DNA from: Dictyostelium discoideum
Lineage: Eukaryota
Length of the DNA: 64,000 nucleotides
Direction: 5' to 3'
Assembly: GCA_000004695.1 (NCBI GenBank)
Contig: CM000154.2
Coordinates: forward strand, 1,696,001-1,760,000
The number at the start of each line of letters is the position of its first letter. Within the stretch, counting starts at the first letter, position 1. Positions 13,022 through 36,232 of this stretch are shown here, in pieces. The position numbers and the translations under genes are program-made. A model generated the notes under the pieces. The model searched no databases and was not told where the DNA came from. It saw only the letters and a list, made by a program, of their open reading frames with translations.

Positions 13022-16000
13022 TTAAAATAAGAATAATTCTTTTTTAATACCTTCTCTCTTCCAAGCTGGAATCTTTAACCATTCAGTTCTAGTCATTTTG
13101 AAAACTTTTTCAAAATCTTCATCATTGAGATAAGTATCCAATTTAGTAGAGTCAACGCCAGCAGGTAATGGATCGGCCAATAACTCTTCATAGGTATAGA
13201 TTTCTTTGAGATAATCTTTAAGTACTTGTTCAACTGGGATACCATCTTTTTCAACCAAAGGTAATTTATTCTTTGGATATTTAGAGGTACACCAAGCACG
13301 GAAATAACTTTTGAAACCAATTGGTTCTTCGAATGGAGTTGCAATTAGTACTTTAGTGTGCTCTTTTGAATGACCCAATTTTGAAGTTTCAATAAAGTTT
13401 AATACAACTTCCATAGAGGCACGTTTAGTACGATGAGTTGCACGACTACCAATCCAAAGGTAAATATGACTTTGTACATCCAATATACAAACGGATCCAA
13501 TATCTAGATCATCTTGAGAGAATGGTGATTCCTCTGTAACTTCAACGATACCCGATGCATTACTACAAACAAAGAAACGTGGTTTATAAGTGAATGAGGT
13601 TGGAATTGAACTACTTTGAATCATAATATCATTAAAGTATTTTTGTCTACCACCTGTACTTTCAAAAGCTGACCAAAATTCATTGGATTCACTACCTTCT
13701 TTTAAGATTTCGATTGGAGCTGAAGTGGAATTGAAATTCTCTGCGATTGAGAGAGCAGAGTTTTGTTCAGCATCCAATGAGAATTTACCATGCCAAATGT
13801 AAATCTTTTCAGGAGTACGCAAGATTGAAACATGTAAAGTATTTAACATTGAGCTTGAGAATTCTACTTGAACGGCACGAATATCAATTTTATCTAAACC
13901 TTTAACTTGATAGAGTGATGGTTTCTTTGGATCATAGTTATTGTATTTACCTTTATGAATTACCATTTTGGTTTTGAAAAGATTTAAAAAGTTTTTACAT
14001 TCTTTATTTGCAACTACTCTAGTTTGAACACAAGCACCAACCAATGATTCATTGAGATCAACTGTTAAATAAGCGGAAGTACCTTTTTCATTGATTGAAG
14101 AATCTCTACCTAAATAATAATAGATAACATGAGCTTCCTTATTATTTTGCATATAGGTATAGAGAACGATATAACTATCTGATGAAAAGAATTGAGAATA
14201 TAAATGTTGTGGATGATCAATCTTTTCATAGTCTTCAATTTTCCAAACTTTAACACGACCACCTTCATCAATTGGTATTGTGAATAAGGCTTCATTATCA
14301 ATGAATGGAGTTGTCATACGTGATGCCAATGTTTCAATTTTATGCTCAACCTTTGAGGTTGCAACATGACTTTTAATCTCTTGACGAGTGGTTGAAATTG
14401 GCAACATACCTGGATAATTTGCAAATTTCTCTTTGAAGAGATTATTTTCACCAAATTCGGTTAATCTTGTTATCTTTGTCCAATCTACACGATCTTTTTG
14501 AGCTTGTAATACCAATGCAACTTTAGTTGCCATTTTTCTTTGAATTGATGATGATTCTTTACCAACCCAAACAAAGATTTCAGTGACACAATCAACAACA
14601 TATACAAATTTAGTATTGAGAATTTCTTTATTTGGTAATTTCCAATCAGTACCTTCCCAAGCTAAACGAGCACGTAATGAATTCTTTTTAACATCTAAAC
14701 CAACACGATAAATTGTAGTTTTAATTGATTCAGTATCTTGTTCCTCTGGAGTTGGAGTTGTTGCGATTGGATCGGAACTATTACCACCTAAAATTTCCCA
14801 AAAATCAAATGATTGTTCATCACGACCTTGATCCAATTGAATTAGTGTTGATTTACCACCTCTTTCTTTTGTACGAATTCTATTTGCAAAATCTAATGCC
14901 TTTGCTTTATTGACACGACTTGTTTTTGAACCTGCCCAGACGAAAATTCTTGGACCAGCATCTAAAATAAAAGAGTTATGACAATTCAATGATGATGTTG
15001 ATAATTTAACCATTCTAACTCTAATCTTTCTTTTACCTTTAACTTGAATTAAAATCTTTTGTTTACCATTTTTAATTGCTGTTAAATCCAAATAACGTGT
15101 TAAATCATCAGCTGATGGATCCAATAAATTACCATTACTACCAGATGATGGAATTGATGATGATGATGGTAATGGTGAGAGTACTTCTTTTTCATTGATA
15201 CCGAACATTTTAATGATATCAATTGAACGTTTTCTTGCAGCTTCCAAACCATCGATCCAACGAGTACAATCATCAAATTCTGCTGTTGGTGCGATTGTAC
15301 GGAAATTACAAACTACTTGATTCATTGAATCATATAGAGTGAATTCATTTGGTGAAATCTTTTTAATTAATGAAATTGAAGATAATTGGATTCTGAGCTC
15401 TGGTGTTGTTGATAGTTTATTACGTGATACAAATAAATCCTCTGCTAATAAGGCAACAAAACATTGACCCCACATTGAAAAGATACCAGGTAATTTTCTT
15501 GATAATTGACCTTCCAATGGTTGCTCTTCTTCCTCTTCTTCAACACCCCCTTCATTGGTATTTGATTCGTCATCACTCATTGGTGAACTAATTAATTCAT
15601 CCATTGTTGAAGCTCTTGTTAATACTGATTTTGGTTTAGTTTCACCTGAACTCTTTAGATTTTGACGTAATACTGATAACCATGATCCACGTTCTTCTTT
15701 GGTTTTTGCTAATAAATGAATGATACGATTTGGTGTTGACAATTGGAAACTAAAACCTTGAATTGTGAAAATTTCTTTGGTTTTATGTGCAGAGATTGCT
15801 TTCTCCAAATGAATAGTCTCTAATGGATCCAATTGTTTCAATGATTTATTCTTGTATGAATAAAGCATACCCTCTGAAACTACATACCATTTCTCTGTAT
15901 TTGAATTCCATAATAAACCTGGTATTAATTCTGTTAAATTACCTTCAATTACAATATCACTTTGTTTAATACCTGTACTTGAATTTAATGGAGTTGATGA

Positions 16001-18213
16001 TGTTGAATTGTTTGCTCTTAATGGTGGTGGTGTTGAAGAAGAAGATGTAGTGGTGGTGGTGGTAGTAGTGGTAGTGGTGGTTGATGAAGTTTGAGCAATT
16101 GATAATGGTGATGCAAATGTTGATGGTGGTGTCGATGTTGATGATGATGGTGATGGTTTTGAAAATCCACCTGAACTTTTCAATGATGTATATGATGGAT
16201 TTCTTGATAATACACTATGATGTCTAGTTTGAGTTGGTGTTGATGATTTTGGTGTTGTTGAATTTGGTGATTCGCTACCTTGTTGTTGTTGTTGTTGTTG
16301 TTCTTTTGGTGATGGTACAGAGAATTTTTGTAATGCATTTTTATTTTCAGATATAACCATTGGTGATGGTGCAACAGGTGTTGTATTAACTAAATGAAAT
16401 TCACCCATTGTTGGTGAAACAACAGATTGATCAACTTGTTGTTTCATTTCTCTATAAGCATTAATTGATTGACACCAAGCATCTCTTTGTTTAACAGTTG
16501 AACATTCCATTCTATGTTCTTTTCCATTTAAAAGTATAATATTGAAACGTAAAGACCATTCCTCACCAGAGGTATTTTCATCTTCATCATAAATGTCAAC
16601 ATATTTTATATTTAAGACTGGTGAATCCCAAATTGCTTGAGCAGAATCTTCATTTAAGAAACAATAAATTTTATCTTTTACAATCTTTAAATATCTATTC
16701 TCATAAGAATTAAATAACCAACCTTCAATTTCTTGTTTAACAATACCTTCAGTAATGAATGGTGAATCACCGCCATTACCATCACCATCGCCACCACCAC
16801 CACCACTACCACTATTACCAATTGAAAGTTTTGATAATTGTTCTAATTTATCTTTTTCTTTACTTTTACCACCTTCTTCTTCTGATACTTCATAAATTGA
16901 TTGAACTCCATCTGGTTTCATTGAGATTGTGTGTGGAATAACTTTTAATTGTTTATCAGCGAACCAAAGTGAGCAATCTGTAGTTGGATCACCAGATGGG
17001 CAAGGAGGGAAAATATCTTCTTGGAAAAGTTGTGATTTTCTTGGACACATAAATGAAACCATTTCAACAGAATTTGCAGCAGTTAAACGTAAGAATCTAT
17101 CGATTTCACAAATGTTAACATCGACAACACTCTTTGGTAATAGGGTGATAGCACTTTGAGTGACATTACCAAATGTTGCTTTACCAATATGATGAGCGTT
17201 ATTCTTTTCAATTTCATAATAATAGATACCATCACCTTTACCGCCTAAATAAACCATATTGGTACCGAAATCATAATAAGGTGATAGGATTGAAGAATCG
17301 GTTGTAACATCTTTTGAAACCAATGGTTGTGAAGATTGTAATTGACGTGGATCCCAAAGATATAATTGACGTTGTGCACTTTTATTTGCGCCAACAGTAC
17401 AAATCAATTCTAAACCATTTGAATCAGCCCAACATAATTTAAATCCTTGTGCACCTTCGTGAGTTGATATAGTTTGAATTGGTGTTGATTGACTTCTTGG
17501 ATCGTATAATCTCATTTTCTTATCCCTTGATGAGGTTGCCAACTTGTCACCACCACTCCAAGTATTCCAACCGACAGACATAATCAAATCTTCATGTCCT
17601 GTTAATTTTTGAATCACTGATGATTGTTCACCTGTGCTTGATAAATCCCAAATATCCAATGTATAATCCAATGTTGATGACATAAATAATGAATCCACTG
17701 ATGGATGAAAATAAACACCTGTAACTCTTTTTTGTTGTTTTGGTAATGTAATCAATGGTGTCACTAAATTATCCTTTATCAATCCTTCCTCTGGCACTTC
17801 CCATATCTTTATCGTACAATCTCTACTACCAGTTGCAATAACATAATCATTAAAATTACTAAATTCAAAACATGATATTGGATCTGTATGTCCTTTAATA
17901 CAAAATGGTGTATCTGGTACTTTACCATGATTACTTAATTTTGTAATTGATAAACATGATCCACCTAAATAAATAAAAATAAAATAAAATAAAAATATTA
18001 ATATATTTATTTAATTATTTAATTATTTATTAATACTTTACCACCAATTGAAGAAGGATAAGCAAATAAACTTTTTGAAGATTTTAAAAGTTCTTCAGAT
18101 GCTGAATTAACTTTTAAATTTGTATAAAATAATTCTTTTTTACAAACTTTGCTAAATACATTTCTTACTTTTGATTCCCTTACAATTGATTTTTCAATAC
18201 TTTTATATTCCAT
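13022..18213 (-). CDS. vilA: Villidin (coronin-like WD repeats + PH domains + gelsolin repeats + villin headpiece), 1704 aa
   Basis: Exon 1, 18042..18213: MEYKSIEKSIVRESKVRNVFSKVCKKELFYTNLKVNSASEE...SSIGG, which looks like a coronin N-terminus, with a GTAAAG donor. Exon 2, 13022..17964 (acceptor AG at 17965-17966): GSCLSITKLSNHGKVPDTPFCIKGHTDP... It carries coronin-type WD repeats, PH-like segments, gelsolin/villin segments and a C-terminal headpiece KLPAWKREGIKKELFLF*. The total is 5115 nt, i.e. 1704 aa, which matches the villidin architecture as I recall it. Internal poly-T/S and poly-Q tracts are present. Confidence 0.9.
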
Positions 18214-31103: not shown

Positions 31104-32028
31104 GTATTGATTAAATAAATCAAAGGTTGTACAAGTGGAACTGGTTTATCTTTAGCCAAAAAATTGTTATCATTAGGACATAGTGTTGCTGGTACTACAA
31201 GAGATATTAATAAATTAAAACAATTGAGTATTTTTAATGATAAATCATTTTTGGGATTACAAGTTGATATTGTTTCCAGTAAATCAGTTAGAGAATCAAT
31301 TGAAAAAACTATTGAGCATTTTGGTGAATTAACCCATGTAATCAATAATGCAGGATATGGAATTGTAGGCTCCGTTGAAGAAGTATCAGAAGAAGAAGAC
31401 AAGAAATTAATGGATGCCCTTTACTTTGGTAGGTTTCAAAAAAAAAAATCCATTGTCAAAAAAAAAAAAAAAAAAAAAAAAAAGTATTAATTTTTTAATT
31501 TTTTATATTAATATATATATAGGTCCTTTAAATGTTATTCGTTCAGTTTTACCTTATTTCAGATCAAGAAACAATGGTTACATTTTTAATGTAAGTTCAA
31601 TTGCTGGTATTAAAGGCTATCCAAGATTTGGTAATTATAGTGGTGCTAAATTCGCATTGGTTGGTTTAACTGAATCATTAGCACAAGATGTTTTACCATT
31701 TAATATTAAAGTTTCATGTATTGTACTTGGTTATATTGCTACCGGTTTCCAAAGTGCAAATGATTATTGTAAAAATTTAATTCCAGAATATCAAAGTCGT
31801 CAAATATTTGGTTCAATAATGAAACATATTGAAGAAACTGTAACTGCTGGTGACCCTGATAAAGTTGCTGATGTTATCATTGAAAACTCTACCAAATCTG
31901 AATTACCATATAATCTTTTCGTTGGTCCACTAAGTACTTTTGAAATGGCTGAATCTAAAGTCAATGAAATTACTCAACAAATTCAATCTCAAAGAGAAAG
32001 AAATTCAAATATTTTAATTGAAAAATAA
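30934..32028 (+). CDS. Short-chain dehydrogenase/reductase (SDR) family oxidoreductase, 3 exons, 286 aa
   Basis: Exon 1, 30934..30985 (MEPILNSNEGKQVWYITG, donor GTAAGT). Exon 2, 31126..31428. Exon 3, 31523..32028. The Rossmann motif ITGCTSGTGLSLA (TGxxxGxG), NNAG and the catalytic YSGAK (YxxxK) are all present. The phases are consistent (861 nt). Confidence 0.85.
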
Positions 32029-32285: not shown

Positions 32286-34370
32286 TTAGATAATATATTT
32301 TGATAAATCAGTTTTGAATAATAATTCACTTAAATGTTTTCTAATGTCGGGAGTATCTAAAACAACTGTTTTACCTTTATGAATATCACAATTAAAACTT
32401 ATATCCTCTACGATACGTTCAATGATACCATGTAATCTTCTAGCGCCAAGATTTTGAACTTGAGCATTTGCTTCAAAAGCGATTTTTGCAACTTCTAACA
32501 ATGCATCATCAGTGAATTCCAATTGAATATCTTCAGTTTTAAGTAATGCTTTTTGTTGTTGAATTTGATTATTCTTTGGTTCAGTTAAGATCTTATAGAA
32601 ATCCTTTTGTTCCAATGGTTTAAGTTCAACACGAATTGGTAAACGACCTTGTAATTCACTAATGAGATCTGATGGTTTAGTATTATGGAAAGCACCTGAA
32701 GCAATGAATAAGATTCTACTGGTATCTATTTGACCATACTTTGTGCTAACCATACAACCTTCAACGATTGGAAGAAGATCTCTTTGAACGCCATCGGTTG
32801 AAGCGTCACCACCATTCTTTATACTTTCACGAGATGTACAAATCTTATCGATTTCATCCAAAAATACAATACCATTTTGTTCGGCCGATTGAATTGCCAA
32901 TTTGGTTACATCTTGAGAGACAGTGTAGAGGTCTCTATATTGTTTTTCAAAGATTTCTTTTGCCTCTGCAATGGTTACTTTTTTAATTTTTGATGGTTGT
33001 TTATCGATAGCAGAGAGTAGTTTAGCGATATTTTCATCATAAGCTTGACCCAAGGATCCCTTTGAATCGGATGATACTTCAATTTCAATCTCTACGGAAT
33101 CCAATTGACCTTCTCTATATTTCTTTAATAATTCTTCGATTGTGATTGCACTTAGATCATTTTGTAAACCAATTAAAGAGGAGATAACATTCTTTTCAAC
33201 ATCGGCTTCAATCGATGCTTTATGTGAGTTTGCAATCTTGGTTTTAATATTACTAATACTTGCTTCGATGAGATCACGAATGATTGTATCAACGTCTGGA
33301 CCATGAAAACCAACCTCTGTATATTTGGTTGCTTCAACCTTTACAAAGGGCGCATTGATAATCTTTGCTAAACGACGTGCCAACTCTGTCTTACCAACAC
33401 CAGTTGGACCAATCATTAAGATATTCTTTGGATAAACATCTGGTTTCATTGATGCATCTAAACGCTTTCTTCTCCAACGATTACGTAACGCAATTGAAAT
33501 GGCTCTCTTTGCATCGGATTGACCAATTACATATTCATCCAAACCACTAACTATATCTCTTGGTAATAAATTATCTTCTCCAATCATATCCTCTGTGAAA
33601 TTATACTTTGGTGCTACATGTTGTTGATGCTGCTGTTGTTGTTTGGCGTGATCTTTATTAAGTTTATTAAAATGTGATACCAAATGATTAATCGCTTTAT
33701 CCATGCTACCTCCGTTTTTTGTATCTGATAATTTCAAAAGTTTGTTAAATAAAATTGGATCCTCTTTAAAAATCTTTTCTAAATTTTCTTCAAGAATAGA
33801 GAGATTATATTTACCTTTACTTTGCATTGGTATTATAACCAAACCATTTTTAATATCACTTAAATCTGAAAAATCAAATTTATTTGTAACTTTTGATAAT
33901 AATGGTGATGTTGTTGTTGTTTTAGTTGTCGCTGTTTCAGTTTCAATTGGTTTTGATTCGAGTGGTGGTGTTGTTGTTGTTTTAGTTGTTGCTGTTTCTG
34001 TTTCAATTGGTTTTGATTCGAGTGGTGATGTTGTTTCTTTTGATTGCGATGGTTTTTGTTTATTTTTTGAACCCTTTGGTCTACCTCTTTTAGGTTTTTC
34101 TGTTGTTATATCTATTTCATTTGTACCTTCTGAAGCCTTTGTTGCTACAGTTTCTTTTTCTAAATCTTTTTCAATTTTCTTATAAATATGATCTAATTTT
34201 AAAGGATTTGAATCATCATTTTCAATATCATCTTTATCTTTACCATTTGTAATTGAACAATATCCTCTATTAAATTTTAAAATTGATAATTGTGGTTGTT
34301 GTGTTTGTTGGGATAATCTAAAAGTTAAAGATGATTTTGCTAATTTAAATAGATTTTTTGAATGAATCAT
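32286..34370 (-). CDS. HslU (ClpY) AAA+ ATPase homolog, bacterial-type, predicted mitochondrial, with a ~250-aa N-terminal extension containing an AT-hook and a tandem repeat
   Basis: A 694-aa single-exon ORF. The Walker A motif is IGPTGVGKTELARRLAKIINAPFVKVEATKYTEVGF. Further HslU blocks are VQRDLLPIVEGCMVSTKYGQIDTSRILFIASGAFH, SDLISELQGRLPIRVEL and NLGARRLHGIIERIVEDISF. The N-terminus MIHSKNLFKLAKSSLTFRLS is presequence-like. The segment KPKRGRPKGSKNKQKP is an AT-hook. A 20-aa repeat, PLESKPIETETATTKTTTT, occurs twice and is encoded by a 60-bp tandem repeat at about 33880-34030. Confidence 0.9.
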   Translation of the reverse strand: MIHSKNLFKLAKSSLTFRLSQQTQQPQLSILKFNRGYCSITNGKDKDDIENDDSNPLKLDHIYKKIEKDLEKETVATKASEGTNEIDITTEKPKRGRPKGSKNKQKPSQSKETTSPLESKPIETETATTKTTTTPPLESKPIETETATTKTTTTSPLLSKVTNKFDFSDLSDIKNGLVIIPMQSKGKYNLSILEENLEKIFKEDPILFNKLLKLSDTKNGGSMDKAINHLVSHFNKLNKDHAKQQQQHQQHVAPKYNFTEDMIGEDNLLPRDIVSGLDEYVIGQSDAKRAISIALRNRWRRKRLDASMKPDVYPKNILMIGPTGVGKTELARRLAKIINAPFVKVEATKYTEVGFHGPDVDTIIRDLIEASISNIKTKIANSHKASIEADVEKNVISSLIGLQNDLSAITIEELLKKYREGQLDSVEIEIEVSSDSKGSLGQAYDENIAKLLSAIDKQPSKIKKVTIAEAKEIFEKQYRDLYTVSQDVTKLAIQSAEQNGIVFLDEIDKICTSRESIKNGGDASTDGVQRDLLPIVEGCMVSTKYGQIDTSRILFIASGAFHNTKPSDLISELQGRLPIRVELKPLEQKDFYKILTEPKNNQIQQQKALLKTEDIQLEFTDDALLEVAKIAFEANAQVQNLGARRLHGIIERIVEDISFNCDIHKGKTVVLDTPDIRKHLSELLFKTDLSKYII

Positions 34371-34560
34371 TTTTATCTATCTATATATATCCTCCCTTTA
34401 CCCAATAATAATATATATAAATATTTATATGAATAATTAAAAGTTTTTTTTTTAAAAAAAAAAAAAATAAAATAAAATAAAATAAAAAAAAAAAAATAAA
34501 AAAAAATAAAATATATTATTGAAAAAAAAAAAAAAAAAAAAAAAAAATTAAAAAAAAAAT

Positions 34561-34591
<31 letters not shown>

Positions 34592-34910
34592 AAAAAAAAT
34601 TAATTAAAATTAAATAAAATGGAAAAAAATCGTTTTTTATTTTATTCTTTTTCCCTTTATTATGCATTTTGGAACAACTTAAATTTATTTTTTTAAAAAA
34701 AAAAAAATAATAAAAATAAAAATGAATTTCGGTTAAATTTTAGTAAACACGTTTCGTTTAAAATATTAATTGTGAATATCGATTTATGTGGGCCATTCTT
34801 TTTTTTTTTTTAATTTTCATTTTCATTTTCATTTTTTTCATTTTTTTTTTTTTTTATTTTTTTTATTTTTTTTTATTTTTTTTTTAATCTAAACAAAATA
34901 AATAATAAAA

Positions 34911-35374
34911 ATGAATTTTTATAAATTATTATCAAACAATTGTGTTAGATCATTAACGAAATCAATTAATAATAAACCAATAATAAATCCAAAATTTATT
35001 ACAAGCAATACTTTTATTAAAAGATCATATTTTACAAAATCACCAAATAATTTATATTCAAATAACTATGATAATTATGAAACTATAAATAAACAACAAC
35101 AACATCAACATCAACATCAACAACTTGAATTTCCAGAACAAAGAAATAATAATAGTAATAATAAAAAAGAAGAAATTACAGCAGAATCATTTGAATCAAA
35201 ACCATTAATTGTTGAATTAGATAGTAAAAACTTTAGTGAAGTTATAAAATCAAAAGTACCAATAATTTTAAATGTATATGTTAATCATGGTACAGTGTCA
35301 CCTGCATTAACTGAAGCATTAAAAGCATATGCTCAAGAATATCCTGGTTGTTTTTTATTAGCAAATGTAAGTGT

Positions 35375-35406
<32 letters not shown>

Positions 35407-36232
35407 TATATAATATATATGTATTATATAAAATAATTTCTAATTTCTTTTTATAATATGATAGTTAGATGTTGATAAGAATTTAGAAATAGCAAACGCA
35501 TTGAAAGTTGAACAATTACCAACTTTATTTACATTAAATAAAGGTCAAGTGCTTCAACAATTTGTTGGATTGCCAGATCATGAAACATTGGATAAATTGG
35601 TTAATGGATTATTGAAATTATCAGGTGGATTAATTGGTAATAAATCAATTGAACAATTACAAACCATTGCTGAATTATTCATAAAATCAAATGAAATCGA
35701 AAAGGCTATTGAAATCTATGAGAATCTATTATCAAATGATACAACTCAATTACTTAGAACTCTACTAGGCTTCATTCAATGTTACACAAATTTGAATGAA
35801 CCTGATCAAGTTGAAAAATATTTATCAATTATTAAAGAGAAATTCCCAAATGAATTAGATCATAAAATTATTCAATCATCTAAAAGAATTTTACAATTAA
35901 AGAAACAAGTCTCTCAAACTGTTGATAGTCTATATAAAACTCATAATCTTACTTTAGAACAAATCGAAGATAAATTAAATAATGATCCAACAAATTTAGA
36001 TTTAAAATATGATTTATCCTTATTATATTATCAAATTGGTGAATATGAAAAATCAATTAATCAATTATTAGAGATTTTAAAAATTAATAAAAAATTTACA
36101 CCAAAAAATGATGATCAATCAAATACAGATTCTGCTAAAAATTTAATTGTTAAAATATTTGAATCTTTAGATTCACAAGATCCATTAGTTATAAAATCAA
36201 GAAAACAATTAAATAATATTTGGTTCTCTTAA
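34911..36232 (+). CDS. Thioredoxin-fold domain plus C-terminal TPR-like helical domain protein (YbbN/CnoX-like chaperedoxin architecture), 2 exons, 407 aa, with a presequence-like N-terminus
   Basis: Exon 1, 34911..35366 (donor GTAAGT). The intron carries (AT)n/(TA)n. Exon 2, 35465..36232. The thioredoxin-like segment is ...FSEVIKSKVPIILNVYVNHGTVSPALTEALKAYAQEYPGCFLLANVDVDKNLEIANALKVEQLPTLFTLNKGQVLQQFVG. The CxxC active site is replaced by HGTVS, with no redox cysteines. The C-terminal half has repeated helical hairpins (IEQLQTIAELFIKSNEIEKAIEIYENLL…YYQIGEYEKSINQLLEILKI). Confidence 0.7.

Follow-up and report, generated by a model that had tools for sequence, protein, structure and literature searches.

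The present analysis concerns a stretch of 64,000 nucleotides of Dictyostelium discoideum DNA (contig CM000154.2, positions 1,696,001 to 1,760,000, referred to as the window) and within it hslU (DDB_G0288593), a nuclear gene that encodes the species' HslU (ClpY) ATPase, most likely a mitochondrial protein, which carries a putative AT-hook in a long N-terminal extension. As the best reading, with a probability of roughly 45%, we regard a mitochondrial HslU whose hook-bearing arms would anchor HslUV at the AT-rich mitochondrial nucleoid. The gene itself is already annotated and eukaryotic HslU is already known; an AT-hook or any other DNA-binding motif on HslU was not found described in the searched literature, as the initial annotation had supposed for the hook, nor was a localisation of Dictyostelium HslU found there. 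The features on which the argument is built are the following.

32286..34370, minus strand: hslU, complete coding sequence in one exon, 694 amino acids (aa) plus stop, an open reading frame (ORF) from ATG to stop

34050..34097, minus strand: putative AT-hook KPKRGRPKGSKNKQKP, aa 92-107, placed by a PDB match and by conservation

32289..33569, minus strand: HslU/ClpY AAA+ unfoldase core, aa 268-694, placed by TIGR00390, by the alignment with Escherichia coli HslU and by a fold match

The extension comprises 267 aa; its presequence-like start is followed by an acidic stretch and the AT-hook, after which come a linker and then a weakly predicted helical module. The core segment of the hook, KPKRGRPKGSKNK, presents RGRP with basic flanks (KPK-RGRP-KGSKNK) and occurs once per chain; aa 91-112 bear a net charge of +7 over 22 residues. 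When a 33-aa query around the hook was compared with the PDB, the sole match was DNA-binding domain 2 (DBD2) of HMGA1 (2EZD/2EZE), to which RGRPKGSKNK is identical in 10/10 positions, and the likeness to the second AT-hook of HMGA noted in the initial annotation proved to be exact. It includes the KGSKNK C-terminal extension of that hook, and both proteins share the character of a disordered basic segment and an acidic stretch near the hook. The core of HMGA1 hooks was described as P-R-G-R-P between positive residues, with Gly for the first Pro in hook 1 (PMC3353895), whereas in D. discoideum HslU this first Pro is Lys. HMGA proteins differ further: they are small architectural factors of the nucleus whose chains each bear three hooks, with a PRGRP core, while D. 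discoideum HslU carries one KRGRP hook per chain on an AAA+ unfoldase, and would present six per hexamer. In the AlphaFold2 model the predicted score in the local distance difference test (pLDDT) is about 30 over aa 71-194, the hook inside, with no predicted secondary structure, and HMGA hooks, too, have been described as disordered until bound to DNA. Judged by these comparisons, the segment is an AT-hook of the HMGA-DBD2 type with putative minor-groove binding.

Conservation of the hook among close relatives was high. KRGRPKGSKNK is present in the orthologues of D. cf. discoideum (two genomes) and D. citrinum, and KKGRPKGSKNK in those of D. dimigraforme and D. firmibasis. Relative to the sequence of D. 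discoideum AX4, the hook shows 0-1 amino-acid changes in 13 positions, compared with 12-57% in the acidic segment, 23-70% (plus gaps) in the linker and 3-13% in the AAA+ core; identity among Dictyostelium is 0.93 in the hook versus 0.52 and 0.43 in its flanks. On these alignments the hook is an island of constraint within a fast-diverging arm that is predicted to be mostly disordered. Outside this clade, Heterostelium album has the hook KPKRGRPSTKFERR, and in Acytostelium subglobosum (DF837576.1, L002:2689-3801) an extended ORF encodes MLSN...MRSFASS...PPKRPRGRPANKFERR, with a score of 13.6 bits for the Pfam AT_hook model (cutoff 17.4). A dictyostelid from EukProt (P0013) that forms its own branch possesses two hooks, TPKRGRPRKE and KKPRGRPKKD, which reach 23.4 bits and hence lie above that cutoff. 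When aligned with MAFFT, the hooks of H. album, A. subglobosum, P0013 and Dictyostelium share the same columns. A GRP with basic flanks was found in none of about 110 other HslUs of a first search and in none of 148 further HslUs that stand for 50%-identity clusters; N-terminal extensions are present in at least 47 of the latter. Because the hook is aligned in deep dictyostelid lineages and absent from about 260 HslUs from outside the dictyostelids, it appears to be an ancestral, Dictyostelia-specific addition, probably with the secondary losses treated below.

The same data bear on the explanation that the hook is without function, a neutral by-product of coding sequence that is purine-rich and of low complexity in this AT-rich genome. 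The arm around the hook is indeed of low complexity, evolves fast and contains a recent 60-bp duplication, and two lineages are devoid of the hook. Yet GRP with at least four basic flanking residues arose in only 0.04% of shuffles of the 267-aa extension, the long ORFs of the window, about 14,000 aa in all, contain no GRP other than that of the hook, and neither a near-invariant hook between diverged flanks nor its aligned recurrence in deep dictyostelids, with none in the other HslUs, would be expected of such a by-product, which is disfavoured and scarcely probable.

Two gene models touch upon the species comparison. The annotated HslU of A. subglobosum (P0011, 544 aa, starting with MAEIQNTS) is N-terminally truncated, as the ORF runs 104 codons further upstream. 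The annotated HslU of D. purpureum (P0009, 491 aa; GL871226.1, L001:2460-3000) is without extension or presequence, and the DNA upstream of it encodes a homologous presequence, FFWRNFCNIIDDKDNDG, and the hook-like KKGKKGGRPKGTKKK (KKGGRPKGTKKK) in different frames, with stops between and no obvious introns. This reflects either assembly frameshifts at homopolymer runs or decay of the extension, and D. purpureum was left out of the count of hook-bearing species.

At the level of DNA, the protein of the minus-strand ORF is 100% identical to DDB_G0288593 of D. discoideum AX4, and a TAG lies in frame three codons 5' of the hslU ATG. A single unbroken hslU ORF was likewise present in 4/4 other Dictyostelium genomes fetched. 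The frame of the extension is open, its indels are multiples of three in five Dictyostelium genomes, and its guanine-cytosine (GC) content amounts to 27% compared with about 10% in the non-coding DNA with A/T runs around the ORF; open frame, indel lengths in relatives and GC above that of the flanks together argue that the extension is coding.

The recognition of the C-terminal part as HslU was fully borne out. TIGR00390, the hslU equivalog model with a curated cutoff of 362.45 bits, scored 502 bits, with aa 268-694 covering model positions 1-441 of 441, while ClpX models stayed far under their cutoffs on the same protein. In a phmmer search against PDB sequences, aa 267-694 matched E. coli HslU (1E94_E, E=1.8e-116) from one end to the other, so that the extension starts exactly at the start of the bacterial protein; the alignment with bacterial HslU that had been proposed as a check thus bounded the extension, with the core starting at aa 267-268. 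The AlphaFold2 model was built from an alignment of 58 sequences and is confident from about aa 258 on, and Foldseek with its core returned best matches that were all HslU (target-normalised TM-score, TMt, 0.77-0.88). E. coli HslU/ClpY (PDB 1E94, 1DO0, 6PXK) is colinear from bacterial residue ~3 to the last with ~45-50% identity, and shares the I-domain, Walker A and B, the Arg-finger region, sensor-2 and the HslV-activating tail, whereas the D. discoideum protein adds the extension and shows GFHG instead of GYVG in the pore-1 loop and Tyr instead of Phe at position -3 of the tail. The elements of the core are these.

33387-33410, minus strand: Walker A, GPTGVGKT (58-sequence alignment)

33300-33311, minus strand: pore-1 loop GFHG, aa 354-357 (alignment)

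inside the HslU core, minus strand: I-domain, about aa 377-510 (region spanned by the 1E94_E alignment)

32847-32870, minus strand: Walker B, IVFLDEID (58-sequence alignment)

32631-32657, minus strand: ELQGRLPIR, Arg-finger region (58-sequence alignment)

32430-32447, minus strand: sensor-2, GARRLH (58-sequence alignment)

32289..32312, minus strand: C-terminal tail TDLSKYII with Tyr at -3, matching EDLSRFIL of E. coli and IDLAKYIL of Trypanosoma brucei HslU2

The catalytic motifs and the pore loop, except for the middle two residues of the latter, are invariant or nearly so in the 58 sequences. In the tail IDLAKYIL of T. brucei HslU2 (TbHslU2) the Tyr was identified as the key determinant of HslV activation (PMC4106860). 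HslV of D. discoideum has been reported and was detected by mass spectrometry (PMC12828403); the cognate HslV gene does not lie within the 64-kb window. From its motifs, the protein is judged to be a genuine HslU, complete and motif-intact, with a predicted HslV-activating (docking) tail. The initial annotation had restricted HslU to a few eukaryotic lineages, which turned out too narrow, as the homologue search also found it in mosses, green algae, jakobids and other Amoebozoa.

Some variation within the core was observed. The pore-1 loop reads GFHG in the listed amoebozoan HslUs, GFQG in Polysphondylium violaceum, GYHG in D. firmibasis and GYVG in E. coli; its aromatic residue is retained, and the change to His is present in all eukaryotic HslUs inspected except for the GFQG of P. 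violaceum. HslU of D. firmibasis (P0006) has a poly-Ser insertion, SSSSSSSSSPSSSSSS, within the I-domain in the region of about aa 433-450, which indicates that low-complexity expansion is tolerated even in this substrate-handling domain.

The part of the extension that precedes the hook comprises the following features.

34257..34370, minus strand: presequence-like N-terminus, aa 1-38 (charge pattern and conserved motif)

34254-34271, minus strand: NRGYCS, closing the presequence-like start, with the motif R-x-[FY]-[CS]-[ST] at aa 35-39, which resembles an R-3 site of the mitochondrial processing peptidase (MPP)

34098..34250, minus strand: acidic segment, aa 41-91, of net charge -6; a single short helix is predicted in it, at aa 60-70 (composition and AlphaFold2)

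The N-terminus had been called presequence-like, and several properties agree with this description. Six Lys/Arg occur in aa 1 to ~38 and seven in aa 1-44, the first acidic residue does not appear before aa 45, and the maximum hydrophobic moment is 0.57. Apart from P0013 (R-Y-C-S), every full-length dictyostelid orthologue carries the motif R-x-[FY]-[CS]-[ST] at aa 32-42, and the first 40-50 residues are nearly free of acidic residues in the full-length orthologues, with the exception of H. album (Glu 22). By such heuristic measures the N-terminus resembles a cleavable matrix presequence with an MPP R-3 site, and the acidic character of aa 41-91 makes a presequence that reaches the hook unlikely.

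An explanation in which the hook is absent from the working enzyme, either because the arm (or about its first 110 residues) is removed after import or because translation starts at a downstream Met, would assign it a role in targeting or in the precursor. The length and mostly disordered nature of the extension would suit this explanation, as would the in-frame Met residues at aa 182, 223 and 262. It is nevertheless quite improbable: aa 41-91, being acidic, do not resemble a presequence, and the R-3-type motif is conserved at aa 35-39; a start at Met182 would drop the presequence-like N-terminus; and the hook is as constrained as the AAA+ core, which would be unusual if it belonged to a propeptide that is discarded.

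For the preferred reading, that of an HslUV anchored at the nucleoid, the following course of events can be proposed. Residues 1 to ~38 would serve as a matrix presequence cleaved at import, and the hook would remain on the mature protein. Assembly of the HslU hexamer would then yield six flexible arms, each with an AT-hook after an acidic stretch, whose multivalent minor-groove binding (avidity) could anchor HslU, and HslV with it, to the nucleoid of AT-rich mitochondrial DNA (mtDNA). Unfolding and degradation might thereby be focused on DNA-bound proteins, e.g., replication or transcription factors. A further step, in which HslVU of social amoebae acts as a nucleoid-anchored, six-hook clamp on mtDNA that controls the turnover of such factors and hence copy number, is doubtful and put forward only tentatively.

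Lon (bacterial Lon as well as mitochondrial LONP1/Pim1) is a DNA-binding, nucleoid-resident AAA+ protease that degrades DNA-associated proteins, and a tethered HslUV would resemble both DNA-associated Lon and the HslVU of T. brucei, which is associated with kinetoplast DNA (kDNA) and restrains mtDNA replication. Lon belongs to another AAA+ protease family, has a fused protease domain and no AT-hook, and its DNA-binding determinant is not homologous. With T. brucei HslVU (TbHslU2/TbHslV) the D. discoideum protein shares its status as a nuclear-encoded eukaryotic HslU and the tail with Tyr, IDLAKYIL versus TDLSKYII (PMC4106860). The trypanosome complex resides in the mitochondrion, where it is enriched at kDNA; depleting it led to about 20-fold over-replication of minicircles, and the PIF2 helicase is a candidate substrate (PMC2277460, PMC10719067). 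A DNA-binding motif for TbHslU is not given in PMC2277460, PMC4106860 or PMC10719067. Kinetoplastids have two HslU paralogues, whereas D. discoideum has one among the matches listed, where no second HslU of the HslU1 type occurs. The residue that we take to be equivalent to E. coli Pro315, as read from the alignment, is Pro in D. discoideum. The corresponding residue of TbHslU2 is reported as Thr (PMC4106860). AT-hooks have been noted in the mitochondrial HMG-box protein of Podospora and in homologues of the kDNA-proximal trypanosomatid TAC53 (PMC7463775, PMC12453217), although DNA binding of TAC53 was inferred and not biochemically confirmed. Both are structural or packaging proteins and not proteases or unfoldases, and they provide examples of AT-hooks in mitochondrial proteins which bind mtDNA or adjoin it.

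The role of mitochondrial HslVU outside kinetoplastids was raised as a question by the authors of the T. brucei study (PMC2277460). If the nucleoid reading is true, the hook would provide sequence-level evidence, from another and distant supergroup of eukaryotes, for HslU working on or at mtDNA, and together with the trypanosome data it would make the link between HslVU and mtDNA maintenance a widespread or ancestral trait of HslVU-keeping eukaryotes and not a kinetoplastid peculiarity. It would also represent a compact natural case of an AAA+ unfoldase recruited to DNA by a short disordered motif that becomes multivalent through the hexamer. D. discoideum is a haploid, genetically tractable model, and the hook makes the role of HslVU directly testable. 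If the hook is irrelevant, the locus is an ordinary annotated gene for an organellar protease with a low-complexity leader.

Several points weigh against anchoring at the nucleoid. P. violaceum and the related metagenomic P0007 lack GRP and have a Lys/Arg patch at the aligned position (KRKGKQTKNSKK and KKKRQSKKAK, respectively), and Tieghemostelium lacteum lacks any hook or patch there (alignment columns ~130-160). As the hslU genes of P. violaceum and T. lacteum are intact single ORFs, these losses are real, and the hook is dispensable in some lineages; selection might also act on charge and not on minor-groove insertion. A single AT-hook per chain binds weakly on its own, as known from HMGA proteins. 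The domain search proposed in the initial annotation succeeded for the HslU model and failed for the hook, since Pfam AT_hook (PF02178) did not detect the D. discoideum segment; the HMGA1 DBD2 control, with 12.3 bits, also fell below the cutoff given above, so that the model is without power for single hooks. The nuclear genome, finally, is equally or more AT-rich, and the AT preference of a hook alone therefore does not indicate the compartment. The natural hook-less HslUs of P. violaceum and T. lacteum are possible comparators.

The first of these points leads to the explanation that the segment is a generic basic patch, i.e., an import-assisting signal or a site for cardiolipin/membrane or for mitochondrial RNA/polyphosphate, in which the GRP core is incidental. 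The strongest argument for it is that P. violaceum and P0007 have lost GRP and yet keep a basic patch at the aligned position; the net charge around the hook also agrees with it. AT-hook-like motifs are moreover reported to bind RNA as well. The strongest argument against it is the strict retention of GRP in every hook-bearing lineage examined, on at least three deep dictyostelid branches; in the Dictyostelium clade the decamer RGRPKGSKNK is kept in 4/6 sequences and KGRPKGSKNK in the remaining two, whereas under a constraint on charge only, Gly and Pro would be expected to drift, as in P. violaceum. We consider this explanation unlikely.

AT-richness of the nuclear genome touches on another explanation, namely that the hook is a nuclear localisation signal or a binder of nuclear AT-rich DNA, with HslU being nuclear or dual-localised. 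KPKRGRPKGSKNK resembles a classical basic signal of this kind, nuclear DNA in the window is about 80% A+T (GC 15-33% throughout), and AT-hooks are typical of nuclear proteins. Opposed to this are the conserved presequence-like N-terminus, the mitochondrial location of trypanosomatid HslVU as the localised eukaryotic case, and the need of HslU for HslV, whose characterised eukaryotic homologues are mitochondrial; a nuclear role is thus very improbable.

The remainder of the extension, between hook and core, comprises the following features.

within the extension, minus strand: linker rich in Thr/Ser/Pro/Glu, aa 108-160, holding the 60-bp tandem repeat (composition)

33909..34028, minus strand: two 60-bp tandem units that encode [S/P]PLESKPIETETATTKTTTT twice, aa 115-154 (Tandem Repeats Finder, TRF, and alignment)

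33651..33890, minus strand: second conserved block, aa 161-240, which includes DIKNGLVIIPMQ and, at aa 190-240, three predicted helices

33618..33641, minus strand: QQQQHQQH, a run of Gln/His at aa 244-251 that forms a variable junction ahead of the core (alignment)

An exact duplication of 20 residues, encoded by a perfect 60-bp repeat, had been described for the linker. The 19 aa of PLESKPIETETATTKTTTT do recur without any change (aa 116-134 and 136-154), while the twentieth residue differs (Ser/Pro), and the repeat is not perfect, as the 60-bp units are identical in 57/60 positions with two synonymous differences besides the Ser/Pro exchange. TRF reported 2.2 copies with 94% matches at 33903-34035, and detected no 60-bp repeat in the DNA of D. 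cf. discoideum and D. citrinum; at the protein level close relatives have two diverged copies. A functional role for the repeat was considered and rejected, given that it is undetected in close relatives, sits in the most variable part of the protein and differs mostly by synonymous changes. It is probably an ordinary lineage-specific low-complexity linker, recently duplicated or homogenised (gene conversion), with no specific role.

AlphaFold2 predicts aa 1-194 to be disordered (pLDDT <50) save for the helix at aa 60-70. The second block, aa 161-240, has pLDDT values of 52-67 and an identity to AX4 of 0.70-0.94 per 10-residue block in five other Dictyostelium sequences; outside the Dictyostelium clade only a vague amphipathic-helix resemblance was seen by eye. 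A Pfam scan of the whole extension yielded only a sub-threshold PH_18 (10.9 bits, cutoff 26.6), and aa 161-240 were without a match.

The surroundings of hslU fit a nuclear chromosome, as the ORFs of the window include an SH2-domain kinase, eRF1, an MBOAT protein, a short-chain dehydrogenase and a villidin-like protein; a tRNA scan of the window found no tRNA. Upstream of hslU the following region separates it from a divergent neighbour.

34371..34910, no strand assigned: intergenic, 540 bp, about 11% GC with long A/T runs, presumed to be a promoter region

The neighbour itself consists of the ORFs 34911-35456 and 35501-36232 on the plus strand, with a (TA)n-containing stretch between them that probably is an intron. 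The product of 34911-36232 shows a presequence-like N-terminus, MNFYKLLSNNCVRSLTKS...KRSYFTKS, followed by a segment that looks thioredoxin-like by eye and has no Pfam match, and then by TPR_20 (77 bits). It resembles chaperedoxins of the YbbN/CnoX type and may represent a second mitochondrial proteostasis gene beside hslU.

On the other side, the short-chain dehydrogenase (adh_short) gene at 31164-32028 (plus strand) is convergent with hslU and split into two ORFs at a poly-A/Lys run, owing either to a short intron or to a change of frame. D. citrinum and D. cf. discoideum have this neighbour downstream of hslU as well, so that synteny is conserved. Farther away, a minus-strand ORF of 1591 aa at 13022-17797 combines WD40, PH, five gelsolin repeats and a villin headpiece in a villidin-like architecture, and coincides with the GC maximum of the window (32-33%).

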